DNA of 64,000 nucleotides from Planctomycetota bacterium (GTDB taxonomy: Bacteria; Planctomycetota; UBA1135; UBA2386), in the NCBI GenBank assembly GCA_965228735.1, contig OZ245838.1:3008001-3072000 (forward strand). Reading direction: 5' to 3'. The notes beneath the pieces were generated by a model. It had not been told where the DNA came from. It saw nothing but the letters and a program-made list of their open reading frames with translations, and did not search any database. Each line of letters starts with the position of its first letter. The first letter of the stretch is position 1. The position numbers and the translations under genes are program-made. Positions 2,797 through 19,199 of the stretch are shown in pieces.

Positions 2797-2886
2797 TCCA
2801 CGCGCATCGGTTCGGCTTCGGACGAACGCCGCGATCGTCGCATGCCACCTCGACGGCGGCAGCGACTCGCACGAGCTTGCGCTTGC

Positions 2887-5553
2887 TCACAGCGCGATGT
2901 CATTGACATCGTCGTAGCGCAACTGCAGCGGGATCCGGTGGACGACCTCGTCGTCGTCGTTCAGCAGCTGCAGTTCGACCGCCGTGTCCGGCACCTGGTA
3001 GACGGGTGAGCCACCCGATCGCACGGCCAGCCGGCGGAACGAGGAGATGACGTCCGGGCGGTGGACCGTGGTCACGATGGCCTGGCCCGCGGCATCCACG
3101 ACCTGCAGCTGCGTCACGCCGGCGGGGAACGTTCCGACGAGGCGGAACTTGCCCTGGCGCGCGACGACGATGCGCCCGTCGGCCCCGGGCGCGGGCACGT
3201 CGTGCGTGCCATCGACGATCCCGGGGCCGGTGAGCCACAGCCGCACCCCGCGCTGCGGACAATCGGTCACGCGCCACCGCCCTGCTGCATCGGTGCTCCC
3301 GGCCCGCGGCAGGGAGATGAACGTCGAGCTCGACGGTCCGCGCTCCGTCGTCGCGGTCACCGCGACCCGCACACCCTCGACCGGCTGGCCGAAACGGTCG
3401 ACGACCATGCCCGACAGCTCCGGCAGGATCGCGTCGACCGGCGCGCGCAGCACGACGTCGGTCGACCCGGCGGCAATCGGACCCGACTCGATCACGAGCA
3501 GCGACGTCGGTTCGACGATACGCAGCGAATACTCGCGCGGCAGGAGCGAGCCGATCTCGAAGGACCCGTCCGCGCCCGTCAACCACTCGCCGCCGCGCTG
3601 CCGCCCGTCGAGCCAGGCCTCGAGCGAACCGGTGAACGTGCCCCACGTCGTGCCGTCGTCGAGATAGACGTTGGCCTTCGCGAGTGGCTCGCCGTCCGGA
3701 CCGAGTGCGCGGCCACGGATCGTGAGCGGCTCGCCGCCGAGCGTCAGTGTCAGGTCCCGCCCGGCCGCGCGGTCGGCGCGCAACCGCGGCGCCAGCCCGT
3801 CCATGACCGCCGGCTGGAAGCCGACGAGGTGCGCCGTCACGGGTCCATCGAACCCGCTGCCGCCGATCTCGAACTCGAACCGCCCGTTCGCGTCGGCGGT
3901 CGCTCCCGTGCTGCCGAAGCGCACGTAGGCCTCGGCCGCGGGTCGACCGTCCGCGTGCCGGACGACGCCGGACACGATGGTGCGCTCGCTCGCCGGCGCG
4001 GCCCGCAGGGTCCAGGTGACGGGCGGCACGACCTCGTCCGCCGGAGTCGACAGCGTCACGTGACCGCGCTTCTGCGCCGTGACCCGCAGCAGCGCGTGGG
4101 CCGGAACCGTCCCGAGGTCGAACGTCCCGTCCGCGCTCGAGCTGTCGCTGAACGATCGATACCCCGACGAGTGCTCGAACCGCTGCGCGATGCCGGGCAG
4201 CGACTCGATGCTGTAGCCGACGCTGACGTACGCATCGTCGATCCCCGCCCCGTGGTCGTCGACGATGCGACCCGCAACGTGAACGGCCGGCCCGACGATC
4301 ATCGTCACCTGGCGGTCGTTCGGCAGCACGCCGTAGCCGTAGAGGATCCAGTCCGTCCCTGCGATGCGCAGATACTCGGCTTCGTCCGTGCCGACGATCT
4401 CGAACTGCCCGCGGCCATCGGTCGCGGCGCGCGGCCGCGTCGCCGTGCCGAGGAGCAACTGCTCGACGAACTCCGCATCGTGGCCGAACTGGCTCGCGAA
4501 ATGACGCCGCGCGGGTTCGATGGTGCGCAGCTGCTGCAGGTGGCCAGGCTCGAGCGTCATCGACATGTTCGGCCAACGCAGCTCGTTGCCGACGAGCTGC
4601 GGCAACTTCGGATCGAAGTGCACGACCTCGATGCCGGGCAGCGGCCGACCATCGACGGTCAGCACCTGACCCGCGAAGCGACCGCCCTCGGTCGGCGCGT
4701 CGACGTCCGTAGTCGATTCCGCAGCGGTCGCGACCGCTTCCCGCGTGGGTCTCGGATCCGCCGCGACGTCGGCGCGTTGGACGTTCGCCGCCGCCGTTGC
4801 CGTGGACCGGCCGGTCGAATCCGGCACGGGCTCGCGCCAGTCGACGCCGATGACTTCGAGACCGAGAACGAGCGCCAGCACGGCGCCCACGAGCGGCAAC
4901 ATCCACTTCATCGTGAGGCTCCCCAGGAGAACGATCATGGGAACGCCAGCACCGGCCGCAGCAGCGGTCGCCTTCGCCGCCCCGCGGGCGGAGAACAGCG
5001 GCAGCAACGCGGCACACCAGGCCTGCCGGTCGCCGAACTCGTCGTCGAGCCGCGCCCGCATGCGCTCGAGCCCGCGCTGGAGCTGCGTGCGCACCGTGTT
5101 CACGGGGCGGTCGAGACGTTCGGCGATCTGCCGCGGCTCGAGGTCGTCGAAGAAGCGGAGCAGCACCACGGTGTGATACGGCTCGTCGAGCTCGAACAGC
5201 TCGTCGACGAGGCGCTTGTGCGCGGCCGCGCGTTGCGCGGCCTCGGCCGGATCGTCGCTCGGGTCGTGCGCGCGAGCGGCCACCGATTCGGCGGCGACCG
5301 TTGCCTCACGACGACGACGACGACCGTCCTGGCGACCAAACCCGCGCGCGGCGTTCTTCGCGACCCGCGCGAGCCAACCCTTGGGATTGGTCAACGCGCG
5401 GGGCGGCCGCGTCATGGCCTCGAGCATCGTCTGCTGCGCGACGTCGTCGGCGCGCGAAGGATCGGCCACGAGGCTGCGCGCGAGCGCGCGGACCCAGTCC
5501 TGGTGGGCGAGCAGAGTGGCGATGGTCGAATCGGTTCCGGTCATGGCGTTCAC
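2887..5553 (-). CDS. ECF (sigma-70 family) sigma factor fused to a TM helix and extracytoplasmic carboxypeptidase-regulatory-like repeats
   Basis: N-terminal region 2 'WVRALARSLV.D...ADDVAQQTMLEA...GWLARVAKN' and region 4 'LDEPYHTVVLLRFFDDL...IAERLDRPVNTVRTQLQRG', then a TM segment 'WMLPLVGAVLALVLGL' and beta-sandwich repeats. Start is GTG 5553 or ATG 5544. Confidence 0.85.
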   Translation of the reverse strand: MNAMTGTDSTIATLLAHQDWVRALARSLVADPSRADDVAQQTMLEAMTRPPRALTNPKGWLARVAKNAARGFGRQDGRRRRREATVAAESVAARAHDPSDDPAEAAQRAAAHKRLVDELFELDEPYHTVVLLRFFDDLEPRQIAERLDRPVNTVRTQLQRGLERMRARLDDEFGDRQAWCAALLPLFSARGAAKATAAAAGAGVPMIVLLGSLTMKWMLPLVGAVLALVLGLEVIGVDWREPVPDSTGRSTATAAANVQRADVAADPRPTREAVATAAESTTDVDAPTEGGRFAGQVLTVDGRPLPGIEVVHFDPKLPQLVGNELRWPNMSMTLEPGHLQQLRTIEPARRHFASQFGHDAEFVEQLLLGTATRPRAATDGRGQFEIVGTDEAEYLRIAGTDWILYGYGVLPNDRQVTMIVGPAVHVAGRIVDDHGAGIDDAYVSVGYSIESLPGIAQRFEHSSGYRSFSDSSSADGTFDLGTVPAHALLRVTAQKRGHVTLSTPADEVVPPVTWTLRAAPASERTIVSGVVRHADGRPAAEAYVRFGSTGATADANGRFEFEIGGSGFDGPVTAHLVGFQPAVMDGLAPRLRADRAAGRDLTLTLGGEPLTIRGRALGPDGEPLAKANVYLDDGTTWGTFTGSLEAWLDGRQRGGEWLTGADGSFEIGSLLPREYSLRIVEPTSLLVIESGPIAAGSTDVVLRAPVDAILPELSGMVVDRFGQPVEGVRVAVTATTERGPSSSTFISLPRAGSTDAAGRWRVTDCPQRGVRLWLTGPGIVDGTHDVPAPGADGRIVVARQGKFRLVGTFPAGVTQLQVVDAAGQAIVTTVHRPDVISSFRRLAVRSGGSPVYQVPDTAVELQLLNDDDEVVHRIPLQLRYDDVNDIAL

Positions 5554-5559
5554 GACCCC

Positions 5560-5588
5560 AGTGCCGCGGGGCCGCGAGCGGACTCACG
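5560..5588 (-). promoter_or_regulatory. Candidate ECF promoter, copy 1 (CGTGAGTCC-N13-CGGCACT)
   Basis: Same bipartite motif and 13-nt spacer as three other copies. It ends 6 nt before the GTG of the sigma fusion. Confidence 0.65.
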
Positions 5589-5648
5589 AATACCCCGATT
5601 CTACCCCGACCTCGGCCAGGATCTCGCAAGACCCGACTGACAAGGTGG

Positions 5649-6929
5649 TTACGACCAGGCGTCGAGCAGCCGCCGGCACTCGGCGAGCAGCCAATCGGAC
5701 TCTTCGAACGGCCGCAGGCTGATGTCCTGCCACAGGATGCGCCCCTTCGGATCGACGAGGAACGTGCCGTGCAGCGCTTCGTCCGAGAACTCGTCCCAGC
5801 AGTTCCACTGCTTGAACACCGCGCCCTGCGGGTCGCACAGGACTTCGAAGTGCAGCGGATCGACGCCGTTCTCCTGCGCCGCCTGCCACGCCGCGCGCAC
5901 GGCGTTCTGATCGTCGGTGCCGATCGTCACGACCTCGATCCCGGCGGCGTTGAACTTCGGGGTCTTGGGTTCCAGCTCGACCAGCTGGGCGACGCAGTGC
6001 GCTCAACCAAAGCCGAGGAAGAACACGACGAGCACGGGTTTGCCCGCGTAGTCGGCGAGCTTGCCGCGACCGTTGAGGCCGCGGGGGAGATCGAATGCCG
6101 GGGCCTGCTGCGGCTGCCATTCCAAGCCGTCCTCACTGCCACCCATCAGGACCGTCAGCTTCGACAAGTGGCCGTCCGGGAGCCAAAGCCGTGGGAAGTG
6201 CAGCTGCGGATGCCGCGGCAGCCGCGGCGCCACCCGCGTGTTCAGGTCCAGGCGCGCACTACCGAGGCCGCCCACGGACTCGCTGTAGCCGGGAACCAGG
6301 AACGGCATCGCGGCCATCCGCCGCATGTAGCCGTTGGCCGCCGAGTAGAACGCTTCGAACGTCGCCAGCGATGGTGACGAGTCACCATCGCAGCCCGCCC
6401 TCGTCTTGGGCCCCAATGTTCGAGCCTGCTCGAATCCCGCGAGCCTCGCGGCCAACGAGCCGTCGATCTCGCGCAGCCGCGCAATCAGCGTCTCGGCACG
6501 CTCGACGGGCTCCTTCTGAAAACCCGCATCGACGAGCTCCGGCTGCCGATCGACTCCGAAGTACTCCCGATACGCTGCGACGATGGCCGCTTCGGGCGCC
6601 GGCGCCTTGCCGACGAACTTGTTCGCCTGCCACACGAGCCGCGCCGCGCGGTTGTTGTTCGACCGCAACGACAGCGCGAGCCCGAGATGCGCGATCGCCC
6701 GCTCCGGCTCGCGATGCGCGAGCTCGCGGAACATGCGGGCCGCCTCCCAGCCCCAACCCGCGGCGAGCCGTTCGAGGCCCGCGTCGAGCAGTTCGGTGCT
6801 CGACAATGCCGGATCCGGCCGGCGCCACGGCAGGTCCCGCGCCAGATCCTGCGCTCGCAACGGTGCTACCGCGCACGTCACGAGCAGCACGACCGTCGCG
6901 ACGGCGCGGAAACGAACTTCGGTTCGCAT
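5649..6929 (-). CDS. Secreted TPR + AhpC/TSA (redoxin) protein, predicted selenoprotein (U-x-x-C; TGA at 6005-6003)
   Basis: ORFs 6003-6929 and 5649-5930 are in the same frame, separated by a single TGA: ...VLVVFFLGFG-[TGA]-AHCVAQLVELEPKTPKFNAAGIEVVTIGTD...LHGTFLVDPKGRILW. The redoxin fold continues across the TGA, which sits at the first Cys of CxxC, and a hairpin follows. Confidence 0.85.
5972..5988 (-). promoter_or_regulatory. Candidate bacterial SECIS hairpin (CCAGCU-GGUCG-AGCUGG)
   Basis: Perfect 6-bp stem with a 5-nt GU-containing loop at +15 to +31 after the in-frame UGA. Confidence 0.7.
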
Positions 6930-7209
6930 GCGGAAAGCTTAGCCTCGGCGGCGCTTCCGACCACCGGCGCCGCCGTCACGATCGCGTCCCGAAACCTTAC
7001 CGTGGCACGCCGCTATAGTCGGGCGCACTTGCCGGCACTCGCGCCGGCCAACCTCGTCCCTTCTCGCCCCATCGTGCCGGACCGCCCTCCGAGGCGGCGC
7101 GCGGCCACTTTTCTCAGAATCCGACAACTTCGCGAACCGGTCCCGACACCGATGTTCCGAAGCGGCCCCCTCGAAGGCCACTCGCCCCCGATTCTCCCGA
7201 TATCTACCG

Positions 7210-8931
7210 ATGCGGATACCCCTATCTCTCGCCGGCCTTCTCCTGGCCAGCTCTCCCGCGCTCGCGCAGACGCTCGTCCTGCTCGGGGCGCAATCGCCCG
7301 GCGCCGAGCCCAACCACGACGACCCGTACGTGCTCGTCCAATCGCGACCGTGGTCGTCGCCATCGTTTCCGGCAGGGCTCGTCGGCGATCTGCGAACGGT
7401 CAGGTTCACGGGCCACGTCGTGCCCGACGTCATCACGATCATGAACCAGCGCGTCGTGCTGTGCGACGCCCCGGGCATTCACGACACGTGCGGCTGGCTG
7501 ACGCCCACCGGGCAGGACCCGGTCTACGCGGTGGCCGCGCTGCCCGGCCACGGCGTCGCCGGCGGTGATCACCCGACACTCGACGCCATCCTGACCGCGA
7601 CGAGCAATGGCCTCGTCCGCCTTCGGATGGGAAGCGCCGCCGTGGTCTCCGCACCAGTCGCCGACGCGACCTGGAACGACGTGCGCATGCTCGCCACCCA
7701 CCCGGATGACGCCACCGTCGTGTACGGCGTGACTTCGTCGGGCGCGGGCCGGATCGGGACGTACGACTCGATCACCGACGACTTCGTGTCGACCTCGCCC
7801 GCCGCTTTCGATCACTCGACGAGCACGGTCATCGACATCGAGTGCGTGAACTGGGACAACGACAGCAACGGCGAGAGCGAGGTCGCGGTCCTCACGGTCG
7901 ACGGTCTCTTCGTGCACGATCGCCTCGGGGCCGTCGTCGCGTCGTTCCCGTTCGTGACGACGATGGCCGCCGACATCGCCCGATTGCACTCGGGCGCCAA
8001 CGCGGTGGACGATCCCGGCACGCCGTCGATCACCGAAGTTCCCGAGAGCATCGCCTGCCTGCGGCCGGCCGCCGGTGGCGGCAGCGAGCTCGCGCTCTTC
8101 AGCTCGTTCGAGACCCAGAGCGTGCCGCTGAACGGCGAAAGCTACGTCGGCGTCGTCGCCGGTGACTGGAGCGGTGACGGCAACGAGGAGCTCGTGCTCT
8201 CGACGTCCCAGAACATCTACGTCTCGGTGTTGACGAACCATGCCGCCGGCAGCGGCGCGACCGACTTCTTCTACGGCGCTGCGACCGCGTTCCACGTCGC
8301 CGTTGCAGCAACGGCCAACCGGGCACACAACGGCTCCGCCGGCGTCATGGCCGACTTCGACGCCGATGGCGACCAGGACCTGTTCGCGGCGCTCGCGATC
8401 GAGAATCCGGGCGGCGAGAGCAGCGCGCCAGCGTACTCGCTCGTCGACAGCAAGCTGATCCACGTCGAGCCCAACGCCACACCGCTGTATCCGGTCGACA
8501 TCGCCTACACCGAGGACATTCACCAGATCCACGGCCAGCTGCACTTCGAGTTCGACGCGCCGGGCGGATCGAGCACGCATACGGAGATCGTGCTGTGGCC
8601 GGTGGTCGACGGCCAGATCGACATCACCCATTCGCAGCGGCGTTCCGCGCGCGTGCCCAACGGCCCCCCGGGAACGCGAATGCGGCAGACGATCGACATC
8701 GACCGCAGCTTCCTCGTGATTCACGAAGCGCAGTACGCCTGTATGGTGCGACCGATCAGCATGGCCAACGACAAGGTGACCGACGTCACGATGGCCACGC
8801 TGTTCGTGACCGGTTTCGGCTACCCGAAGGACGGCAACGGCAACCTGACGCCGCCGCCGAGCCCGCCGCCGCCGAGCGAACCCCTGCCGCCAGGCGACGA
8901 TCCCGAAGACCCGCCGTCGAACGGCGGTTAA
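7210..8931 (+). CDS. Secreted FG-GAP/VCBS-repeat protein with Pro/Asp-rich C-terminal tail
   Basis: Signal peptide MRIPLSLAGLLLASSPALA; repeats 'NWDNDSNGESEV', 'GDWSGDGNEELV', 'ADFDADGDQDLF'; tail PPPSPPPPSEPLPPGDDPEDPP. Confidence 0.75.
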   Translation: MRIPLSLAGLLLASSPALAQTLVLLGAQSPGAEPNHDDPYVLVQSRPWSSPSFPAGLVGDLRTVRFTGHVVPDVITIMNQRVVLCDAPGIHDTCGWLTPTGQDPVYAVAALPGHGVAGGDHPTLDAILTATSNGLVRLRMGSAAVVSAPVADATWNDVRMLATHPDDATVVYGVTSSGAGRIGTYDSITDDFVSTSPAAFDHSTSTVIDIECVNWDNDSNGESEVAVLTVDGLFVHDRLGAVVASFPFVTTMAADIARLHSGANAVDDPGTPSITEVPESIACLRPAAGGGSELALFSSFETQSVPLNGESYVGVVAGDWSGDGNEELVLSTSQNIYVSVLTNHAAGSGATDFFYGAATAFHVAVAATANRAHNGSAGVMADFDADGDQDLFAALAIENPGGESSAPAYSLVDSKLIHVEPNATPLYPVDIAYTEDIHQIHGQLHFEFDAPGGSSTHTEIVLWPVVDGQIDITHSQRRSARVPNGPPGTRMRQTIDIDRSFLVIHEAQYACMVRPISMANDKVTDVTMATLFVTGFGYPKDGNGNLTPPPSPPPPSEPLPPGDDPEDPPSNGG

Positions 8932-9042
8932 CCCACCTCGCTCTCGCTTCGCAGGCGGTCGCCCGATGCCGGCCGCCGCAGCACCTCACGGACGATCGCG
9001 TCGCCCTGGCGCGTGAGCCGGAGGAGCGAAACGGGCCGGCGC

Positions 9043-11451
9043 TCAGCGCGGCGCGGCAACGTCCAGTCCCGTGACGCGCATCCCGGCGAAGTAATAGGGC
9101 TCCGCCCGGCCGGGCGCGCGGGCAACGGCACGCCGGGCCTCGAACATCGCCGCGCTGAACGTCTGCCCTTCGCTCCACCGCTGCAGTGCGCCAGCGAGCA
9201 GGTCGCGCGTCGCGCCGACCGACAGATCACCATGCGCGAGCGCCACACAGTCGGCGCCGGCGAGCAGGAACGCGCCGCCCAGATGGTTCACCCCACCGTC
9301 ACCGAGCCGGGACGGGCCCGCTGCTGCGCCGCAGACGCCGAGCATGACGAGCGGTGGCGCTGCAAGACTCTCGACACCATCGGGGAAGACGGGCTCCGCG
9401 CCAGCGAGCAGCACGCCGGCCGGTCGCTCGCGACGATAGTCGTAGACCCCGTGCGAGAACACGCAGAGGGCGCGCGCCGCAGCCGTCTCGCGATCGCGCA
9501 GAGCCGCCGGCGTCGCCCGCGCGCCCCAGAGCGCGCGCACACGATCCGCAGCGAACGGTGCCGTGAACCGCGACCGCCGCGCCGCCGACATGCCGATCGG
9601 TTCGACACCCCAGCGCGCAGCGGTCTCGACGTCGAACTCGGGATCCCCCACGACCGTCAGGTCCTTGCCATGGGCCGGCGCGCCCTTGGCGGCGCGGGCT
9701 TCACGGCGGAGCCGGAGCGCCTGCCCGACGGCGACCGACGGCAGGAAGCGCATCGGTGTCTGCAGGCACCACCAGCCGTCGCTCCACGGCAGCAGCTGGA
9801 ACGTGCGGCTCGACAGCTCCGGGCCGACGAGCACGACCTCGCGCCAGCCCGCGACCCGCTCGCGCACCGCCGGCGGCAGCAGATAACCCGCCACCCGCGT
9901 CGCGATCTCACGCACCGGCACCCCCGACGGGCGGCGGTCGAGACTGTCGCGCAGCGCGTAGGCATCGGGCCAGAACGCCCGCCCGAGCGGCAGCGTGTGA
10001 TGCTCCCCGCCGTTCTCGTCGATCAGGAGCAGCGACGCGGACCACGGGCTGAACACGAACATCAGCAGGCCGCCGCCGCTGGGGACCAGGCTGCGCGCGA
10101 CGTCCAGGCCGACCGGCGCGCCATCCGCGACGAGCCGGCGGGACAGGGTGCCGAGCGCGAACGCCGCCTCCATGTGGCCGAACGCGGCCGCGATCCCGCC
10201 ATCCCCTCCGGCCGTCGCCCGATCGAGCTCGAGCAACGTGCCGAGCAACACCCGCTGGTTGCCGTACTGCAACGCCCCTCCGCCGCCATGGCGCACCGGC
10301 CGCCGCCGCCAGGACTCGAGCCAGTCCCGGGTCGCCCGTTCGAGGTCACGATGCAGGGCGCGCAACTCGGCGCGCGGCCGTGCCGCGGCGAGCGCGGTAC
10401 GCGCGCGCAGGGCCAGGATCTCGGCGTCGGTCCTGGTCGGCTCCGTCGATTCGCCGAACAACTCGTCGAGCATCCGCTCCGCGCGCTCCGGATCGCCGAG
10501 CTCGAGACAGATCTCGACCGCGATGATGCCGGCGCGCAAGGCACTGCCACCGAGCAAGCGGACGCGCAACTTCAACAGGTCGTCTAGCACACTCGAGAGC
10601 GCCACGGCGTCGGCCGCGAGCTGATAGCGCGCGAGCAGCAAGCGATACTCGAGATCGGTGCGCTGCGACTCGTTCAGCCCGGCGAACGCAGAATCGGCGA
10701 GCGCGCCCCGAGCTCGCTTCTGCACGCGATCCGTTCGCCCGAGCGCGAGCTGGACATCGAGCTCGAGCACGAGCACGTAGTAGCGCCACCCCAGATCGTC
10801 CTTCACGAGCTCGGCGAGGGCTTCGAGGTCCCCGAACGCGCGGTCCGGCAGCCCGAGATCGAGATGGCAGCGAATCCGTTCGGTTCGCAGCTGCTGCCAC
10901 ATGTAGCGCGTCAGCGCGCCCCTCGAGCCCGCCTGCACCAGGCCCTCGTCCGCGGCCGCGAGCAGCTCGAGCCCTTCCCATGGTCGTTCTTCGAGCCGAA
11001 CGACGCTCGCCTGGTAGACCCGGGCGAGCGGGTGATACTGCTCGACCGGACTCGCGAGCACCGCCCGACAGCTCGCGCGCGCGACGTCGTAGGGCGCCTT
11101 TCGCAGGTCGGCGTCGATCTTGCCGATATGCGCCCGCACGGCGGCCACGGCCTCGGCCGACGGCTGCTGCGCTTCGGGCCCGACCGATGGTTGCTCGGTC
11201 TCGGCGCTCGCCGATGGCTTCGGCGCGGCCTCGACCGGCTCACCCCGATCGAACGCGCCGAGGATCGCAGCGCCCCAGATGCCCGCGCCGAGGACGACGG
11301 CGGCGGCGAACAGAACGCCGGCTCGGCCCGAAACGGACCGCCTCAGAAGAGCGGGTGACTCGCGACGAAGGTCTCGTTCCGGACGAACGCCGTCACCTGC
11401 CAGATCGCCGTCTGCGGCAGGCCGTCCAGTACGGCTTGGGTCAGTCGCCAT
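9043..11451 (-). CDS. CHAT-domain (caspase-like) protease with N-terminal TM anchor and TPR-like helical region
   Basis: Catalytic His 'VFSHGV' and Cys 'LVMLGVCGAA', followed by 'LGGAFLLAGADCV' and the C-terminal 'PYYFAGMRVTG'. N-terminal hydrophobic segment 'AGVLFAAAVVLGAGIWGAAIL'. Start uncertain: ATG 11451 overlaps the upstream gene by about 110 nt. Confidence 0.8.
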   Translation of the reverse strand: MATDPSRTGRPAADGDLAGDGVRPERDLRRESPALLRRSVSGRAGVLFAAAVVLGAGIWGAAILGAFDRGEPVEAAPKPSASAETEQPSVGPEAQQPSAEAVAAVRAHIGKIDADLRKAPYDVARASCRAVLASPVEQYHPLARVYQASVVRLEERPWEGLELLAAADEGLVQAGSRGALTRYMWQQLRTERIRCHLDLGLPDRAFGDLEALAELVKDDLGWRYYVLVLELDVQLALGRTDRVQKRARGALADSAFAGLNESQRTDLEYRLLLARYQLAADAVALSSVLDDLLKLRVRLLGGSALRAGIIAVEICLELGDPERAERMLDELFGESTEPTRTDAEILALRARTALAAARPRAELRALHRDLERATRDWLESWRRRPVRHGGGGALQYGNQRVLLGTLLELDRATAGGDGGIAAAFGHMEAAFALGTLSRRLVADGAPVGLDVARSLVPSGGGLLMFVFSPWSASLLLIDENGGEHHTLPLGRAFWPDAYALRDSLDRRPSGVPVREIATRVAGYLLPPAVRERVAGWREVVLVGPELSSRTFQLLPWSDGWWCLQTPMRFLPSVAVGQALRLRREARAAKGAPAHGKDLTVVGDPEFDVETAARWGVEPIGMSAARRSRFTAPFAADRVRALWGARATPAALRDRETAAARALCVFSHGVYDYRRERPAGVLLAGAEPVFPDGVESLAAPPLVMLGVCGAAAGPSRLGDGGVNHLGGAFLLAGADCVALAHGDLSVGATRDLLAGALQRWSEGQTFSAAMFEARRAVARAPGRAEPYYFAGMRVTGLDVAAPR

Positions 11452-12128
11452 TCGGTTGCTTGGATCGCGGACTTCTCGAACCGCGGGGTCGCGGTCGTGT
11501 CCGCGCTGGCGAACACGGCGAGAGTGTAGTCCGTCCCGGGTGGAATGCCGCCCCCGGGCAACTCGAGCGTCCACGAGAGGAGCAGCTCGGCACCATCCGC
11601 CTGGACCCGCAGCACGAGTTCTTCGTCACCGAGGGTCTGGTTATCGTCGTTCGTCGGTTGCGCGGGCCCGGAGAAGACGCCGACCGCCCACAGCAGCAGG
11701 ACAGCGGCGGCCGCCGCGCCCGCGAACATGCCGATGCGCGCCGGGCCGCGCCGCAGCGTCGCGGCCGTCGGTTCCTGGGTCCCGGATCCGCGCACCTCGG
11801 GTTCATCCGCACCGCCCGGCAGCGGCCGAACGGCACCGGTGTCGCCGCCACCGAGGGCGAGCTGCCGCAGGGTCCTCGCAACCGTCGACTCCTCGGCCGA
11901 GCTCGTCGCCATGGCCTCGGCCTCGGCGAGCAGTTCGCGCTCGCGTTCGGCATCGGTCGCCAGCTGACCCTGCACGTCCTGCAATTCGGTGAGCGCCGCC
12001 GCGAACGCGGGGTTCTGCGCGGCCGCGGCCGCAACGTCGGGATCGTCACCCGCACGCTCGCCGGTCACGACGGCCGCGAGCAGCTGCTCCTCGCGATCGG
12101 ACAGTGGTGTTCGTGGTGTTCCGGTCAT
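11343..12128 (-). CDS. Putative single-pass anti-sigma factor
   Basis: ATGA-coupled directly downstream of an ECF sigma. It has an N-terminal helical domain (MTGTPRTPLSDREEQLL...), a TM 'IGMFAGAAAAAVLLLWAVGVF' and a C-terminal beta-rich domain. Confidence 0.6.
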   Translation of the reverse strand: MTGTPRTPLSDREEQLLAAVVTGERAGDDPDVAAAAAQNPAFAAALTELQDVQGQLATDAERERELLAEAEAMATSSAEESTVARTLRQLALGGGDTGAVRPLPGGADEPEVRGSGTQEPTAATLRRGPARIGMFAGAAAAAVLLLWAVGVFSGPAQPTNDDNQTLGDEELVLRVQADGAELLLSWTLELPGGGIPPGTDYTLAVFASADTTATPRFEKSAIQATEWRLTQAVLDGLPQTAIWQVTAFVRNETFVASHPLF

Positions 12129-12724
12129 TCTCCGTCCTCCTCCCTGGACCGGTAGAAACGGCGCAACGAGTCGAGTCCGCGGTAGTACCGCGATTTGACA
12201 GTGTTCGGAGACAGCAGAAGTTGCGCAGCAATCTCGAGAAAAGTGAGGCCCTGGTAGTGCTTCTTCCGGATGACCTGCGCTTCCCCCGGTGGCAACGCGT
12301 CGATCCCCTGTTGCAGCCGCTCGGAGTCGGCGTCGAACTCCGGCGCGGGCGCGGCCAGCTCGGCGACGTCGTCGAGGGAGACGCCGGTCCGCGACCCGGA
12401 GCCGACGCGGCGCAACGCGTTGCGCATCTGGAAGTCGCAGATGCGGAACACCCACGTCTCGAGCGCGGCATCACCGCGATAGTCCGCGAGCCGGCGCCAG
12501 ACGACGGCGAGCACATCCTGCACGATGTCGTCGAGGATCTCGGGCGCGAGGCTCTGACGACGACGGGCCGCGAGGCACTTCACGAACCGTGGGACGCAGT
12601 GCATCCGCTCGATGAACTGGTCGAGCGCGTCGGGCTGGCGGGCCAGAACATCGGCCACGAGCGCGAGATCCGCCGTGGCCGGTGACCGCTCGCCGTCGCC
12701 CGCCTCAGCTCCGGACGCACCCAT
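12125..12724 (-). CDS. ECF RNA polymerase sigma factor
   Basis: 'DDIVQDVLAVVWRRLADYRGDAALETWVFRI' (region 2) and 'ALPPGEAQVIRKKHYQGLTFLEIAAQLLLSPNTVKSRYYRG' (region 4). Start uncertain. Confidence 0.9.
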   Translation of the reverse strand: MGASGAEAGDGERSPATADLALVADVLARQPDALDQFIERMHCVPRFVKCLAARRRQSLAPEILDDIVQDVLAVVWRRLADYRGDAALETWVFRICDFQMRNALRRVGSGSRTGVSLDDVAELAAPAPEFDADSERLQQGIDALPPGEAQVIRKKHYQGLTFLEIAAQLLLSPNTVKSRYYRGLDSLRRFYRSREEDGE

Positions 12725-12805
12725 GCAGCGACCCGCATTCGGGAAAAAGTGGGCGATCGGGCGAGCGGCGCCGGGCGGCAAACATGGCCACCCAGCATAG
12801 CGCCG

Positions 12806-12826
12806 CGGTGGCCATGAGGGCCACCG
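12806..12826 (-). terminator. GC hairpin, possible terminator
   Basis: CGGTGGCC-atgag-GGCCACCG, a perfect 8-bp stem just after the stop at 12836. No U-tract. Confidence 0.35.
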
Positions 12827-12835
12827 GGTCCCGGA

Positions 12836-14026
12836 CTACTGCTTCATGAACCGCTCGAGGTCGGCCACGTAGTGGTCGTCCTCATGGAGTGCTATGGCCT
12901 TCTTCGCCGCCTTCACCGCCTTCTCGGTCTGGCCGTTGAGGTGCTGGCACCAGGCGACCGTGTTCCAACAATAGGCCTCGTACTTCGCGAGCTTCTCGGC
13001 GTCGTCGCCGCCTTCCGCTTTCTGGTCCGCGACCTTCTTCTGCATCTTCGTGAGCGCGCTCTCGGCGAGCTGCAGCGCGAACTTCTTCTCCTTGCTCGTG
13101 CGCTCGTCGCCGTTCTCGACGATCCAGCGCGCGACGCCATTCGACCAGTCGACGACCTTGTCGTCCGGGCAGGTCTTCCACGCCGAGTGGAACGCGGCGA
13201 ACGCGGCCTGGTCGTCCTCGCGCTTCAGCTCCATGTTGCCGATCTGCACCCAGGCCTCGTGCCTGGCCTCGGCCGGCTTGACGAGTCGAACGTGCGCGTA
13301 GAGCGGCTCGAGGTCCCACTTGCGGATGCGTTCGGCGCGCTGCGCGTCCGTCTCCTGCATCCCGTCGCCATCCTGGCCGTCGCCGTCGCCGTCGCCGCCG
13401 CCGACGATCTCCCGAATGACGTCCTGCATGCGAACGCGCGCGCCGACGACCGTCTTGCCCTTGCTGTCGATCGTCCGGATCGACTCCATGAGTTCGTCGT
13501 GGCGATCGTCGTTGCCGAGCGCCTGGACCTTGCCCGCGAGGGCCCAGCGCGCCTCGATGTCCTCGGTGCTGCCGTCCTCGTGCTGCTCGATCTGCCGCCG
13601 CAGACCGCGCACGGTGCCCTCGCCCCTCCGGATGCGCCGGAGTTCCGCGTCGAAGTCGGCCACGGGGATGAACCCCTGGATCAGATCGTCGGCCTGACCG
13701 TCGGGCGTCAGGAACAGGATCGTCGGCAGCGTCCGAACGCCGTACTTCTCGAACACGTCCTGCACGCCGTCACCGCCGTGCTTGGCGCTGTAGCACACGA
13801 ACTCGCGCATCGCGCCGGCGGCCTCGTCCGTGCTCAGCGTCTCCTGCCAGAGCTTGCCGCAGTAGTCGCTGCCGTCGGCCCAGCAGTAGACCAGGATCGG
13901 GCGGTCGGACGCCGCCGCGCGCTCGGTCGCATCAGCGAGCGAGTAGACCCAGTCGACGGGCCGGGGCGGCGTCAGCGGCAACGCGGCGGCGAGCAGGAGA
14001 ACGGAGACGAACGGAGTCGGGGTCAT
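12836..14026 (-). CDS. Secreted thioredoxin-like (Thioredoxin_7/SoxW-type, SxxC) + TPR-like protein, paralog A
   Basis: Signal peptide; 'VDWVYSLADATERAAASDRPILVYCWADGSDYCGKLW...YGVRTLPTILFLTPDG'; helical TPR-like C-terminus. Confidence 0.8.
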   Translation of the reverse strand: MTPTPFVSVLLLAAALPLTPPRPVDWVYSLADATERAAASDRPILVYCWADGSDYCGKLWQETLSTDEAAGAMREFVCYSAKHGGDGVQDVFEKYGVRTLPTILFLTPDGQADDLIQGFIPVADFDAELRRIRRGEGTVRGLRRQIEQHEDGSTEDIEARWALAGKVQALGNDDRHDELMESIRTIDSKGKTVVGARVRMQDVIREIVGGGDGDGDGQDGDGMQETDAQRAERIRKWDLEPLYAHVRLVKPAEARHEAWVQIGNMELKREDDQAAFAAFHSAWKTCPDDKVVDWSNGVARWIVENGDERTSKEKKFALQLAESALTKMQKKVADQKAEGGDDAEKLAKYEAYCWNTVAWCQHLNGQTEKAVKAAKKAIALHEDDHYVADLERFMKQ

Positions 14027-14087
14027 CGCTTGGACTTTCTCGGTTGGGAGTGGTGAGGTCGCGCGGCGTCGCGCGATACGTCCTCCG

Positions 14088-14117
14088 AGTTGCCGCGCGA
14101 TCCGCATCGGACTCACG
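14088..14117 (-). promoter_or_regulatory. Candidate ECF promoter, copy 2 (CGTGAGTCC-N13-CGGCAACT)
   Basis: Intergenic, oriented toward thioredoxin paralog A. Confidence 0.65.
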
Positions 14118-14155
14118 CCGATCCACGGCCGGGAAACGAACCCGACCCGCCCGTG

Positions 14156-16684
14156 TCACAACGTGACCCGACCACCCCCGGCCGGCACCGCCGCGCGCCG
14201 CACGATCGCGCCGTCGCGATAGCCCACGACCTGGACGGCCGTCGCCGGCAGCCGGAACGCCTCCGTCCGACCACCGAGGATCGGCACCCGATCCGTGCGC
14301 TGATTCTCGTTCCCGCGCGGGATGTCCACGACGAGCGCCCGCCCCGCGGCGTCGATGACCGCGACGAGCTCGACCGCGCCCGGCTCGACCACTTCGACGA
14401 CGAGCGTGTGCTCGCGCACCAACTGCACCTCGAGACCGCCTGCGATCGCCGCCTCGAGTTCGATCGTGCGGCCGACGTAGCCCGCGCGGTGCAGGCGCAG
14501 ACGCAGATCGCCGACCGGCACGTCGTAGAGGAAGAACTCGCCGTCCGGCCCGGTCACCATCGCGCCGCGGCGGTAGGACTGCCGGAACACCGGGTGGCCG
14601 GCGGCGCTGACCTCGCAGATCGAGAGGTCGATCGTGACGCCGACGCGCGCGAGCGGCCGACCGAGCTCGTCGACGACGCGGCCCCGGAGGCGTTCGTGCA
14701 CCGCGCTGCCGAGCTGCAACGTGACGTGGTCCGCGCCGGCTGCGATGGTCTGCGGGTCGGAGCGCAGCAACGTCTTCTCCTGCCCGGCGCGCACGACATA
14801 GTCGCGGGCGTCGAGCCCCGTGATCTCGAATGCGCCGTCCGCGCCCGTGATGGCAGGCCGCAGCGGCACGCCCCGGTCGCCGAGCAGGTCCTCGACGAAC
14901 TCCGGATGGCGCGCGTTCGGCGACCGACCGTTCGCCGACCGGGAGCGCTCGCCGATGCGACCGAGCGCGGTCTGGAGGCACGTCCGCTCGGCGAACGAGA
15001 ACGGCGTGGGATCCGTGATCCACACGCAGGCATTCCGCACCGGTCGCCCGCGACCGTCGACGACCTGACCGCGGATCGCGCGCGGCCGGTCACCGAGCTG
15101 CAGAACGAGTTCGCCGCGCTCGCGATCGAGGGCCGCCGACCGCGCGATCGACGCGGGCAGCCGCTCGGGCGCGACCGCGATGACGCGGTCGCCGACCGCC
15201 GTCCTCGGCAACCAGAAGCTGCCGGCGTGATCGGTCCGCGTCACGGCGTCGCCGCACGCCACGCGCACGTCACGCGCAGCCGAACCGTCGTGGTCGAGCA
15301 CGGTGCCGACGATCGCGCCGCGCGGCGCTGGTTCCCTGGACAGAACGACCTCGCACGTGGCCGCGGCCGGCAGCGCGGACCGCTCGATGCCGAAGCCCTC
15401 GCGGCGCACGACGAGCTGCGCGCCGGCGATCGCCGGGATCGCAGCGAGATCGAACCGGCCGTCCGCGCCGGTCGTCACCGCGAACGACTCGGTGCGGGCC
15501 GCCGCCACGCGCGCGCCGAACCGCGCGCGGAGTTCGGCGGGCAGCTCGATCGCCACCTCGGCGAGCGCGAGCGGCCGGTGGTTCATATCGACGATGCGCC
15601 CCGCGAGTCGCCGCCGCGGCGCAACGACGACACAGAGATCCGACCGCACCGCCGCCGTGCCCGCGACGGCTGCCAGGACCGTGACGACGTTCTCCGACAA
15701 CGCCGTCACGAAACCGCTGCCCGACGCCGCGAGCTCGAACGCCCCATCGGTGCCCGTCAACGCGATCTTCGTGCCGCGACCACGATCGCGTTCGGGCTCG
15801 AACCGCAGGACGAGGCCGGGCGCCGGCGCACCGTCGACCGACAACGCCACGCCAGCGAGCGCCCGTTCGGGCATCTTGACCGCGCCCCAGTCGATGCCGG
15901 CGTCCGACTGCACCCCGGCCGGAGTGCGATCCGGCATCGCCGGCGCCGGATCCTCGCCCGCCGTGCCCGCGGCGGCGGTCCGGGTCGGCGGCGGCGGCAC
16001 CGGCGTCGGCTCGGCGCTCCGCCACACACCCGTCGACCACAGCGCCAGCGCCGATACGGCAACGGCAGTCACGGCAGCAGTGACGATCGCGACACCAGCC
16101 ACGCTGCTCGACGGCACCACGCGATCGCCCTCGAGCCCGGGCACCAACGTGACGAGCGGCAACAGCGCCTGCCGTCGTTCCGCCGCGCCGCCGTAGCGAT
16201 CGTCGAGCTGACCGCGGAGCTGCTCGAGCCCGCGCTGCAGCCGGGTCTTCACCGTCGCGATCGGCATGGCCAGGGTGCGCGCGATCACGGTCGGCGACTC
16301 GTCGAGAAAGTAGCGCCGCAGCAGCACGAGGCGGTAGTGCTCCGGCATCCCCATCACGGCGTTGACGACCGCGCGATGGGCGTCGACGCGCTCCACGAGC
16401 TCCGCGCTGCTCGGCTCCTCCTCGGGGCGGATGGCCGCGGCCTCACGGCAGGTGCGGCGCTCGTCGCGACGAACGCGCTCCCACAACACGTTCCGCAGGA
16501 CCCGCGACAGCCAGGCGCGCGGCGAACGGATCTCGACGGGATCCGCCTCGAGTGCCGCCAGCATCGTCTCCTGCGCCAGATCGTCGGCGTCATCGGGATC
16601 GCGCACGAGCTGCGCCGCGAGCGCCCGCACCCAGTTCGTGTGTTCGAGCAGGGTGTCGAGCGCGAGTTCGGGAGAACGGGCCAT
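14156..16684 (-). CDS. ECF sigma factor fused to a TM helix and carboxypeptidase-regulatory-like repeats (paralog of 2887-5553)
   Basis: 'LLEHTNWVRALAAQLVRDPDDADDLAQETMLAAL...AWLSRVLRN' and 'MPEHYRLVLLRRYF...IARTLAMPIATVKTRLQRG'; TM 'VAIVTAAVTAVAVSALALW'. Confidence 0.85.
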   Translation of the reverse strand: MARSPELALDTLLEHTNWVRALAAQLVRDPDDADDLAQETMLAALEADPVEIRSPRAWLSRVLRNVLWERVRRDERRTCREAAAIRPEEEPSSAELVERVDAHRAVVNAVMGMPEHYRLVLLRRYFLDESPTVIARTLAMPIATVKTRLQRGLEQLRGQLDDRYGGAAERRQALLPLVTLVPGLEGDRVVPSSSVAGVAIVTAAVTAVAVSALALWSTGVWRSAEPTPVPPPPTRTAAAGTAGEDPAPAMPDRTPAGVQSDAGIDWGAVKMPERALAGVALSVDGAPAPGLVLRFEPERDRGRGTKIALTGTDGAFELAASGSGFVTALSENVVTVLAAVAGTAAVRSDLCVVVAPRRRLAGRIVDMNHRPLALAEVAIELPAELRARFGARVAAARTESFAVTTGADGRFDLAAIPAIAGAQLVVRREGFGIERSALPAAATCEVVLSREPAPRGAIVGTVLDHDGSAARDVRVACGDAVTRTDHAGSFWLPRTAVGDRVIAVAPERLPASIARSAALDRERGELVLQLGDRPRAIRGQVVDGRGRPVRNACVWITDPTPFSFAERTCLQTALGRIGERSRSANGRSPNARHPEFVEDLLGDRGVPLRPAITGADGAFEITGLDARDYVVRAGQEKTLLRSDPQTIAAGADHVTLQLGSAVHERLRGRVVDELGRPLARVGVTIDLSICEVSAAGHPVFRQSYRRGAMVTGPDGEFFLYDVPVGDLRLRLHRAGYVGRTIELEAAIAGGLEVQLVREHTLVVEVVEPGAVELVAVIDAAGRALVVDIPRGNENQRTDRVPILGGRTEAFRLPATAVQVVGYRDGAIVRRAAVPAGGGRVTL

Positions 16685-16696
16685 GGGTATCCGGCG

Positions 16697-16726
16697 GGTC
16701 GCCGCCGCCGCGCCACGGGACTCGCG
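16697..16726 (-). promoter_or_regulatory. Candidate ECF promoter, copy 3 (CGCGAGTCC-N13-CGGCGACC)
   Basis: Ends 12 nt upstream of the ATG of the second sigma fusion. Confidence 0.6.
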
Positions 16727-16747
16727 AACCGGTATTCTTGCAGAACT

Positions 16748-16777
16748 CGTGAGTCCGTCGCCGCTCCGGCGACGACT
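16748..16777 (+). promoter_or_regulatory. Candidate ECF promoter, copy 4 (CGTGAGTCC-N13-CGACGACT)
   Basis: Back-to-back with copy 3 and oriented toward thioredoxin paralog B. Confidence 0.6.
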
Positions 16778-16886
16778 CTCCTGGGTGGCGGTTCCCGTCC
16801 CACCCGCCACGAGACCCCTCCGACCACGCTCCGCCAGGTCCTCCCGCATGCCCAACCACGGCCCACGATCTCTCGTATCTTGCTGC

Positions 16887-18053
16887 ATGCAAGGTGTTTA
16901 CGCGATCATTGGCGCGATCGTCCTGGCCGCCCCGGTGACGGCCGGCCAACAGGCACCGGACGCTGACGGGTCCGCCGGCGCCGCGGGCGCGACGATCGAA
17001 TGGCAGAGCGGCGAACTGACCAAGAGCCTCGCCCGCGCCGAACTCGCGGGGCAGCCGCTGCTGCTCTACTTCTGGATGGATGGCAGCCAGCACTGCCAGA
17101 ACCTCTGGGGCCAGACCCTGACCCAGCCCGCGGCGGTGACCGCGCTCCAGCAGTTCGTGTGCCACAGCGCCGACGTCGCGACGCCGGCCGGCAGCAAGCT
17201 CGTGCAACGGTTCGGCATCAAGACGCTGCCGAGTCTGCTCGTCGTCACGGCGAACGGCGCGGTCGATGACGCGATGCTCGGCTTCGTGCCGCTGGCCGCG
17301 TTCTTGAGCGAGGCGCAGCGCATCACGAACGGCACGGGCACCGTCACCGCGCTGCGGGCCGCCGTCGACGCCGCACCCGACGATCTCGACCGCCGCTTCG
17401 CGCTCGGCCAGAAGCTCGAGTTCGTCGGCGACGAGGCGGCCGGCGACGCGATGTTCCAGTCGATTCGCGCGGCCGACCCCGAGGGCCGCACGACACCGGG
17501 CGCCGAACTGCTGTTGTTCGACATCCGCAATCAGATCCTCGACCGCGCGTCGGATCGGAACGACCCGGCGACGTGGGACCTCGCGCCGCTCTACCGTCGA
17601 CTGCGGCAGACGAAGCAACCAACGGTGCTGTGGAAGGGCTGGAGCTTCCTCTCGCGGATCGAAGGCGAACGCGGCGCGCCGCGCGAACAGGTCGCGGCCT
17701 ACGCCGCGGCGTGGCCGCACGCGCCCGCGGTCGAACGCGACGAATGGGGCTCGAACGTCGTCGAGAACCTCTGGAGCCGCCGCGACACGGTGCGCGCCGC
17801 CGGTCGCAAGCTGGCGCGCGAGATCGCGCGCACGCTCGCCGCACACGCGGACGCGCCGGCCGCTGATCCGGCGGGCAACGGCAGAAAGCCGCCCACGGCC
17901 GAGCAACGCGCGTTTTTCCTCGCGTCCGCGGCGCGCGGCATGGCCCTCGGCGGGCGGCGACGGGCCGCCCTCGACCTCGTCGCCAAAGCTCGCGAACTCA
18001 CGCCCGACGACGCGGCCCTCGAACAGCTGCAGCAGCAGATCGAGCGCCGCTGA
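16887..18053 (+). CDS. Secreted thioredoxin-like (SxxC) + TPR-like protein, paralog B
   Basis: Signal peptide; 'IEWQSGELTKSLARAELAGQPLLLYFWMDGSQHCQNLW...FGIKTLPSLLVVTANG'. Aligns by eye with 12836-14026 (WDL.PLY, G.GTV..LR). Confidence 0.8.
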   Translation: MQGVYAIIGAIVLAAPVTAGQQAPDADGSAGAAGATIEWQSGELTKSLARAELAGQPLLLYFWMDGSQHCQNLWGQTLTQPAAVTALQQFVCHSADVATPAGSKLVQRFGIKTLPSLLVVTANGAVDDAMLGFVPLAAFLSEAQRITNGTGTVTALRAAVDAAPDDLDRRFALGQKLEFVGDEAAGDAMFQSIRAADPEGRTTPGAELLLFDIRNQILDRASDRNDPATWDLAPLYRRLRQTKQPTVLWKGWSFLSRIEGERGAPREQVAAYAAAWPHAPAVERDEWGSNVVENLWSRRDTVRAAGRKLAREIARTLAAHADAPAADPAGNGRKPPTAEQRAFFLASAARGMALGGRRRAALDLVAKARELTPDDAALEQLQQQIERR

Positions 18054-18059
18054 CCGCCG

Positions 18060-19199
18060 TCAGCGCAGCCCGGCGTAGGCCGTCGCCGGCACGACGCAGA
18101 ACTCGATGCGGCGGTAGCCGTCCGCCTCGTAGAGGCACCCGAGACCGCCGCCGCCGGGCATCGCCACGAGGCACGAGTAGGCGCTGCCCCCGGGATGCAG
18201 CACGTGCTGCCACGGCCAGGTCTGGCCGCCGTCCGTGCTGAGGCGCAGCGTCATGACCTCGCGCTTCTTGCCGTGCGCCGGGTTGCTGAACGCGATCAGG
18301 CCCGGCTCAGCGCCCTCGGCCCAGCGTACGCGCCGCAGACTCGCCTGACACGTCGGCTCGACGAGCGCGGGATCGTGCCGTTGGTCACGCCACGTCACGC
18401 CACCGTCGAAGCTCACGCAGACCTGGCGTCGTGACTGCGCACGGTCGTAGTTCCGCATGTTGAGCAGCAGGCTGCCGTCCGCGCGTTCGACGACCTCGCA
18501 CTCGTTGACCTGATCCTGCGGCGACGAGCCACCGCGCCGCCACGTCACGCCGTGATCGTCCGAGTAGATCACGTGCGAGTAGTACCGCTTCGTCGCCGCC
18601 TCGATGTGGTCGCACGGGATCACGAGCCGGCCCGCGTGCGCCCCGCGTTCGAGCTGGATCCCGGCACCCGGGCCCGTCGCGTACCACGTCCAGTCCGGCA
18701 GTTTGGTCGGGTCCGTGATCTCGCGCGGCGGCGCGAACGTGCGCCCGTCGTCGGAGCTGCGCAGCAGCCACACCGTGCGCGTTCCCTCCGAGGTGCCGCG
18801 GATGATCTCGGACTCGTGATCGTGGCCGAGATTGTGCGTCGCGAGCAGCAGCACGTCGCCGGTCGTGCGATCGACCACGGGGCACGGATTGCCGCAGGTG
18901 TTGGGCCCGTCGTCCCACACGACCGACACGGCGGACCACGTGCGCCCACCGTCGGTCGAACGCCGCATCAGCAGATCGATGTTGCCGGCATCGCCGCGGC
19001 CTTGGACCCGGCCCTCGGCGAACGCGAGCAGGTCACCGTTCTTGGCAGCGATGATCGATGGGATGCGATAGGTGTGGTAGCCGCCTTCGCCGCTGACGAA
19101 GACGTCGGTTCGCTGCATCGGCAGCGGCCCGGACTGGGCCGCGAGACCGGCGACGAGCAGGGACGACCAGACGAGGCTCGAGTCGAGGGCACGGCGCAT
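18060..19199 (-). CDS. Exo-alpha-sialidase-like glycoside hydrolase (GH33, BNR repeats)
   Basis: 'YRIPS' motif; Asp boxes STDGGRTW, SSDDGRTF, SDDHGVTW, SFDGGVTW, STDGGQTW; 'AYSCL'. Confidence 0.9.
   Translation of the reverse strand: MRRALDSSLVWSSLLVAGLAAQSGPLPMQRTDVFVSGEGGYHTYRIPSIIAAKNGDLLAFAEGRVQGRGDAGNIDLLMRRSTDGGRTWSAVSVVWDDGPNTCGNPCPVVDRTTGDVLLLATHNLGHDHESEIIRGTSEGTRTVWLLRSSDDGRTFAPPREITDPTKLPDWTWYATGPGAGIQLERGAHAGRLVIPCDHIEAATKRYYSHVIYSDDHGVTWRRGGSSPQDQVNECEVVERADGSLLLNMRNYDRAQSRRQVCVSFDGGVTWRDQRHDPALVEPTCQASLRRVRWAEGAEPGLIAFSNPAHGKKREVMTLRLSTDGGQTWPWQHVLHPGGSAYSCLVAMPGGGGLGCLYEADGYRRIEFCVVPATAYAGLR

Follow-up and report, generated by a model that had tools for sequence, protein, structure and literature searches.

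Four copies of a bipartite, promoter-like motif in a 64,000-nucleotide (nt) window of a Planctomycetota genome (assembly GCA_965228735.1, contig OZ245838.1, positions 3,008,001 to 3,072,000; genome G000 below, 7.19 Mb and 69% GC) are very probably promoters for extracytoplasmic function (ECF) sigma factors. They appear to be read by a family of proteins, here termed sigma-TM, in which an ECF sigma factor is joined through a transmembrane (TM) helix to an extracytoplasmic domain. Specifically, the pattern CGYGAGTCC-N13-CGRC matches the window at 5588-5563(-), 14117-14092(-), 16726-16701(-) and 16748-16773(+), hereafter sites 1 through 4. Shuffled versions of the window give a mean of 0.17 matches and reach four in 0 of 100 shuffles, a figure that is circular because the sites themselves supplied the pattern. 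As a first-pass annotation of this DNA had reported, all four sites share a 13-nt spacer, are intergenic and are oriented toward a gene. Sites 1 and 3 face the genes for sigma-TM 1 (5544-2887) and sigma-TM 2 (16684-14156), and sites 2 and 4 face two genes for proteins that combine a thioredoxin (Trx) fold with helices resembling tetratricopeptide repeats (TPR), namely Trx-TPR 1 (14026-12836) and Trx-TPR 2 (16887-18053).

The second box of the motif is likely an extended -10 element, CGG, followed by a core at -13 to -10 that reads CACT, CAAC, CGAC and CGAC at sites 1 through 4, and this division therefore gives each promoter an ordinary 16-nt spacer. Site 1 (5560-5585, minus strand) would consist of a -35 GAGTCC at 5585-5580, N13, CGG and its core, with a predicted +1 near A5550 on this inferred numbering. 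We prefer ATG 5544 as the start codon of sigma-TM 1 because the alternative GTG 5553 lies upstream of this predicted +1. Sites 2 (14089-14114, minus strand) and 3 (16698-16723, minus strand) have the same GAGTCC, N13 and CGG, with predicted +1 positions near G14079 and A16688; in the latter case, a predicted autoregulatory promoter, the ATG of sigma-TM 2 falls at +5. Site 4 (16751-16776, plus strand) stands back to back with site 3, carries CGA in place of CGG, and has a predicted +1 near 16786 ahead of Trx-TPR 2, whose alternative start is ATG 16848. A scan of window positions 2500-18500 with a sigma-70 consensus returns no sites. The predicted leaders of both Trx-TPR genes are longer than those of the sigma genes and contain putative GC-rich hairpins (16783-16807(+) and 14088-14026(-)).

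The motif is conserved in related genomes. A search for Trx-TPR 1 covered 61 genomes, and 16 regions were examined, with G001, G007, G011, G022, G026, G033, G041 and G052 among the relatives compared. The arrangement of a Trx-TPR gene, a sigma gene and a divergent Trx-TPR gene is also found in G001, G033 and, in two copies each, G011 and G022, one of the two G022 copies having a single adjacent Trx-TPR gene. The check proposed at the outset, a search upstream of orthologous sigma genes, finds the motif at all seven module sigmas (one each in G000, G001 and G033, two each in G011 and G022), in the forms GAGTCC, GAGTTC or GAGACC, followed by N13 (N14 in G033) and CGRCRAC. Directly upstream of linked Trx-TPR genes it is present in 11 of 14 cases (13 genes in modules and one remote in G022), and one further linked gene closely follows a protease gene that bears the motif. 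The 19 stand-alone Trx-TPR loci score 8.3 or less, except for one at 15.6 (GTGTTC-N14, far upstream).

A broader survey indicates that this motif is a single version of a more general design. We assembled 169 family sigmas, mostly the best 30 of 93, 63, 39 and 46 matches in G011, G033, G001 and G022, respectively, together with those of G000 and single loci elsewhere. Expectation maximization on the 169 upstream regions yields an A/T block, G-N5, N13 and CGG-N4, with a log-likelihood of 742 versus 142 for shuffles and 459 and 447 for random gene upstream regions. A confident site is found at the expected distance in 138 of the 169 regions, of which 114 are left after dereplication at 55% identity. 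The -35 hexamer varies among these sites (GAACCG, GAATCC, GCATCC, GTCACG, GAGTCC and others), as does the -13 to -10 core. Judged from these upstream regions, GAG(T)CC-N13-CGRCAAC is one allele of an architecture common to the sigma-TM-CarboxypepD_reg family. The first-pass annotation had considered GAGTCC an unusual -35 within the cognate promoter of a whole ECF group. The promoter part of that proposal is supported for the sigma-TM fusions, but its group-wide scope is not, given 36 long paralogs in the genome that each have their own allele. GAGTCC itself is an allele and not an anomaly, because every paralog carries its own and the commonest -35 in the family is GAACC(A/C/G), in 27 of 169 rows.

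Support for sigma factor recognition comes from covariation between promoter bases and protein residues. Mutual information for the hexamer peaks on the recognition helix of sigma4, and that for the core peaks on region 2.4. Across the 114 pairs, the highest z values are those of T147 with -34 (19.9), K146 with -30 (15.2) and -31 (10.4), A143 with -32 (13.0), E69 with -13 (12.1) and -12 (7.7), and Q150 with -32 (8.6), compared to null maxima of 3.1-4.0. A accompanies T147 in 49 of 53 rows, and C or G accompanies S147 in 36 of 41; C is the partner of E143 in 24 of 24 rows and of K146 in 26 of 27. In an alignment with AlgU, residues K146, T147, Q150 and E69 correspond to R171, S172, F175 and N84 of RpoE, the AlgU numbers being one higher. 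These RpoE residues are reported determinants of -31, -34, -32 and -13/-12, respectively (PMC7776599). This equivalence therefore sets the register used above, with GAGTCC at -35 to -30, CGG at -16 to -14 and the core at -13 to -10. Independently of the residue comparison, with this register the predicted +1 is a purine in 88 of 114 sites, and the first in-frame ATG or GTG lies at +1 to +9 in 76 of 114 family sigma genes. Such very short predicted leaders (16688-16684 and 5550-5544 in the window, and +1 for an Asp-PDZ protease gene of G000 discussed below) suggest leaderless or near-leaderless translation.

As a control for kinship, residue changes were compared with base changes in 69 disjoint nearest-neighbour pairs. 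The associations of T147 with -34 (p 6e-6), E69 with -13 (1.5e-4) and -12 (4e-4), R80 with -16 (6e-4), A143 with -32 (7e-4) and K146 with -30 (0.02) persist, and four mismatched control pairs show no association (p 0.08-0.63). Some parts of the code fare less well and count against it, since Q150 with -32 (p 0.63), K146 with -31 (0.1) and R61 with -10 (0.43) are unsupported by this test. A residue-to-base dictionary built without relatives places a sigma's own site at a median rank of 5 of 114, and within the top 11 for 86 of 114. Moreover, the nine-base codes of paralogs are nearly all distinct within each of five genomes (16/16, 23/23, 22/22, 21/22 and 26/28 rows, with duplicated rows in G033).

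The principle of ECF autoregulation and its recognition code is already known. The bipartite, fixed-spacer, autoregulatory promoter described here is of the same kind as those covered by the ECF specificity code (Todor et al., 2020, PMC7776599) and those of SigX and SigW (PMC5758882), base covariation falls at the same determinant positions and involves the same bases (PMC7776599), and the core CGAC is the -10 element of Bacillus subtilis SigX (PMC5758882). Unlike the known code, however, the sigma-TM architecture includes a family-wide CGG at -16 to -14, whose bases covary with arginines that follow region 2.4. Here R80/-16 passes the pair test, and R76/-15 rests on approximately three rows. 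The very short leaders, and the deployment of the code across dozens of paralogs in one genome, likewise set the family apart. The terms 'Planctomyc' and 'extended' are absent from the main text of PMC7776599, and in the literature searched we found no description of the family architecture, the CGG element or the regulon; Wiegand et al. (2020) or the supplement of PMC7826278 may already provide a group name and logo.

The regulon of these promoters is predicted to be small. The plain pattern has nine matches in G000, four of them in the window, and spacer 13 is no commoner than other spacers (6-17 matches each); the signal is therefore local. The genome-wide scan suggested by the first-pass annotation thus shows no enrichment of spacer 13 with the plain pattern, but a matrix trained on 15 sites in four genomes other than G000 does recover sites 2 through 4. 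Using this matrix with a cut-off of 15 and a crude gene caller, 8 of 33 matches at spacer 13 are intergenic and upstream of a gene, compared to 3/32, 3/212 and 4/83 at spacers 10-12 and 9/236, 3/102 and 4/37 at spacers 14-16. Sites 2, 3 and 4 score 26.0, 19.6 and 20.8, respectively, and site 1 falls below the cut-off at 13.5. The other five intergenic matches precede genes for an exported-type hydrolase, an Asp_protease_2/PDZ protein (Asp-PDZ), a WD40 protein, another long sigma and a protein of unknown type. The likely exported Asp-PDZ protease has the motif upstream in G000, G011 and G022, which represent three genera, and its gene lies inside the module in G011 and G022. Additional single targets in relatives encode a DUF2911 protein, a TPR protein and a hydrolase of beta-lactamase fold, and the N-termini of all three look signal-like by eye. 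This small, mostly linked set resembles the 'local regulator' mode of other ECFs (PMC7776599, PMC5758882). Several absences weigh against this picture: the motif is missing from the divergent Trx-TPR genes of both second-type modules (G011 and G022), from a second G011 ortholog of the protease (L329) and, for the hydrolase target at genome position 426010, from three of three close orthologs. The matches at 5031743 and 1558213 are uncertain as sites, and one at 4546992, which falls where a coding region of a cytochrome oxidase cluster ends, was taken as chance. A degenerate pattern run on four relatives gave mostly coding-looking matches with a reversed control that was not comparable, and it was not used.

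With regard to the individual sites, site 1 is probably read by sigma-TM 1 and sites 2 through 4 by sigma-TM 2. When the dictionary is trained without GAGTCC-type rows, the two window sigmas occupy ranks 1-3 among the 36 long paralogs on all seven sites tested. Two features of this ranking speak against the split. The dictionary does not separate the window sigmas from each other, with sigma-TM 1 first on sites 1, 3 and 4, and several short sigmas score higher on sites 2 through 4 when all 128 ECFs are considered. The assignment therefore rests on phylogeny. Specifically, sigma-TM 1 belongs to a clade of its own with a Shimodaira-Hasegawa-like approximate likelihood-ratio test (SH-aLRT) value of 99 in a quick tree with an unresolved backbone, and the members of this clade in G001, G007 and G026 keep GAGTCA..CACT, whereas the sigma-TM 2 lineage accompanies Trx-TPR genes and the CAAC/CGAC core. 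The two proteins had been treated initially as one group, but they represent separate lineages, the sigma-TM 1 clade having its own allele in three of three other genomes. It is rather unlikely that sigma-TM 2 alone reads all four sites, with sigma-TM 1 acting beneath it in a cascade or as part of a shared regulon, although the single regulon of the first-pass annotation implies as much. Such an arrangement would account for the GAGTCC of site 1 in G000, which is the sigma-TM 2 allele (C at -30 with K146), for a site 1 dictionary score of 3.8 for sigma-TM 2 that is close to the 4.0 of its competitor, and for the proximity of the two sigma genes in G000 and G001. It fits poorly with the allele kept throughout the sigma-TM 1 clade, with the finding of no Trx-TPR gene in the short G007 and G026 loci examined, and with the fact that a CACT core is joined to a GAGTCC -35 only once in the G000 genome. 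Regardless, some cross-talk between the two sigmas in G000 is plausible.

We consider it very improbable that the motif is instead the operator of a dimeric, non-sigma factor or is read by some other sigma, such as the short ECF encoded at 12781-12125. A loose dyad (GAGT...ACTC) can be drawn, since several sites end in ACTC, and a hairpin is possible at site 4. However, the dyad is matched at only 3-5 of 6 positions in 15 orthologous sites, on which grounds we rejected it, and the bases covary with recognition residues of the adjacent sigma itself. Thus, the non-sigma regulator named in advance as a possible refutation finds little support. The short ECF was rejected as well, because it ranks 22-71 of 128 and is missing at the loci of G011, G022 and G033, where the motif is kept.

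Both proteins assigned to these promoters have the domain content of group 4 (ECF) sigma factors, with PF04542 and PF08281 above cut-off and no match to the region-3 domain, and their TIGR02937 scores are 55.9 and 69 bits (cut-off 42.9). One strong hydrophobic helix follows the sigma domain in each. In sigma-TM 1 (2887-5544, minus strand), sigma2 and sigma4 precede a single helix at about residues 216-234 and CarboxypepD_reg repeats. In sigma-TM 2 (14156-16684, minus strand), the likely cognate factor of sites 2 through 4, the model (predicted local distance difference test, pLDDT, of 81) shows the sigma domains, a helix at residues 197-217, a low-confidence linker and tandem beta-sandwiches that resemble pilin/Cna-type domains, with low whole-chain TM-scores. 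Pfam searches find no FecR or zinc-finger domains in the ectodomains, which carry CarboxypepD_reg instead, and no WD40 match in the C-terminal extensions. This fusion of sigma, membrane helix and extracytoplasmic domain is shared with IutY of Pseudomonas putida (ECF243) and with TM-fused ECF48/52/53, which are activated, as proposed or shown, through release by proteolysis (PMC8999054). Unlike in IutY, the ectodomain is a beta-sandwich chain of approximately 570 amino acids without FecR, and 36 long paralogs exist in one genome. The ECF57 proteins of planctomycetes likewise have long C-terminal extensions and a duplication-driven expansion in the same phylum (PMC7671368, PMC7826278), but the window sigmas lack their WD40 extension. 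G000 has 124 Sigma70_r2 matches, and 36 of its 128 ECF-like frames have extensions longer than 500 amino acids. Two sigma-TM 2 homologs carry the name Planctomycetota. A search of genome contigs for related loci gave only distant ECFs (best segments 25-52% identity) that were not used further.

The products of the target genes point slightly more toward protein quality control than toward redox catalysis. Trx-TPR 1 (12836-14026, minus strand; GSDYC) and Trx-TPR 2 (16887-18053, plus strand; GSQHC) have an SxxC motif in a thioredoxin fold followed by TPR-like helices (model pLDDT 91), and both are likely exported, as judged by eye from hydrophobic N-termini that are low-confidence in the model. 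GroEL, the partner of Escherichia coli CnoX, is cytoplasmic. The top fold match is E. coli YbbN/CnoX (PDB 3QOU), an agreement in architecture only (TMq 0.23, rmsd 21), and the best stretch of the sequence match covers only the Trx domain (E 2e-10). CnoX similarly fuses a Trx domain bearing SxxC (SQHC, as in Trx-TPR 2) to TPR helices, and acts as a holdase with a protective cysteine and no oxidoreductase activity (PMC8129009). The window proteins differ from it in their likely export, in a match confined mainly to the Trx domain and in the spacing of their second cysteine. A CxxC active site is found in 0 of 19 aligned Trx-TPR proteins and 0 of 30 partly overlapping loci, the C-terminal cysteine of SxxC is kept in 16 of the 19, and the cis-Pro column is invariant. 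Oxidoreductase chemistry, as implied by the initial description of an envelope thiol-redox module, is not borne out by these counts. A milder version, a redox-protective regulon in which exported Trx-TPR proteins work as chaperedoxins, joined to their clients by mixed disulfides, and the sigma responds to oxidation in the envelope, seems unlikely to us. It would explain the SxxC shared with CnoX and the peroxiredoxin-like UxxC gene adjoining sigma-TM 1 in G000 and G001, and the second cysteine (C78) retained in 18 of 19 proteins also weighs in its favour and against the quality-control interpretation, so that the proteins may have some thiol role. In contrast, the SxxC cysteine is lost in 3 of 19 homologs, one of which lacks both cysteines, cysteine columns of the sigma ectodomains are kept in at most 11 of 23 sequences, the peroxiredoxin gene lies upstream of site 1 and outside the control of the motif, and the other conserved target is a protease. 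Chaperone-like Trx-TPR proteins together with a PDZ protease suggest envelope quality control.

Taken together, these observations are probably best explained by a set of ECF promoters with -35 GAGTCC, a 16-nt spacer ending in CGG, and a core of CA/GAC or CACT, divided between the two sigmas as described. The beta-sandwich ectodomain would sense a signal, upon which site-1 and site-2 proteolysis, by analogy to the systems noted above, would free the sigma from the membrane; M50 and S41 protease families are present in the G000 genome. Once free, the sigma would activate its own gene along with a few likely exported quality-control factors, among which the Trx-TPR proteins may act as chaperones alongside the Asp-PDZ protease. 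More tentatively, 30-90 single-chain receptor-sigmas might be kept apart by a combinatorial promoter code of approximately five bases at -35 and four at -10, built on a common CGG anchor that an arginine-rich helix would recognize. In this scheme the present channel would be an envelope quality-control loop that encodes its own regulators. Asp-PDZ would perform site-1 cleavage or serve for clean-up, and the exported Trx-TPR proteins would be either chaperones or factors that damp the sigma's ectodomain in the manner of RseB. If true, the regulon of each channel could be read from sequence alone. Whether the many same-group ECFs of one planctomycete are redundant or specialised has been named an unsolved question (PMC7826278), and the near-complete distinctness of paralog promoters in five genomes points to specialisation. 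The family, uncharacterised to date, thereby gains a predicted regulon, a set of naturally occurring sigma-promoter pairs that are candidates for orthogonality, and exact pairs for testing.

Several further observations concern relatives of these proteins. A second sigma-TM clade (SH-aLRT 99) comprises 17 long G000 paralogs, for example at C1:5040231, 5740609 and 7095624, and its upstream boxes, by eye, include GTGCAAC, GTAGCA and GGGAAC. The regions 68-1966(+) and 59572-62003(-) encode CarboxypepD_reg repeat proteins that lack a sigma domain and have a composition similar to that of the sigma ectodomains. ARAGORN calls a tRNA-Ala at 14184-14281(-), inside the 3' coding end of sigma-TM 2, that is probably false. 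Stand-alone Trx-TPR paralogs (L383, at G000:C1:2772863-2773981, and L361-L375) have other non-CxxC motifs, including HNAC, DGYC and NDNC, and lack this promoter. Distant homologs in G041, G052 and G026 (L008, L014 and L017) contain a TGA within the match, which may signify selenocysteine or broken genes.

Among neighbouring genes, 6929-5649(-) is a single gene with an in-frame TGA at 6005-6003 that encodes an exported-type AhpC/TSA protein with a UxxC motif. It is a likely selenoprotein, because the TGA occurs in 4 of 10 loci, its place is taken by Cys codons in the remaining six, and selA is present in the genome. In both G000 and G001 it is the gene immediately upstream of site 1. The segment 12781-9043(-) encodes the short ECF sigma, a putative membrane anti-sigma and a caspase-like CHAT protein with HG and CG motifs, and converges with a gene for an FG-GAP protein (7210-8931(+)). 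Among the 16 regions examined, this block retains synteny in G001 only.

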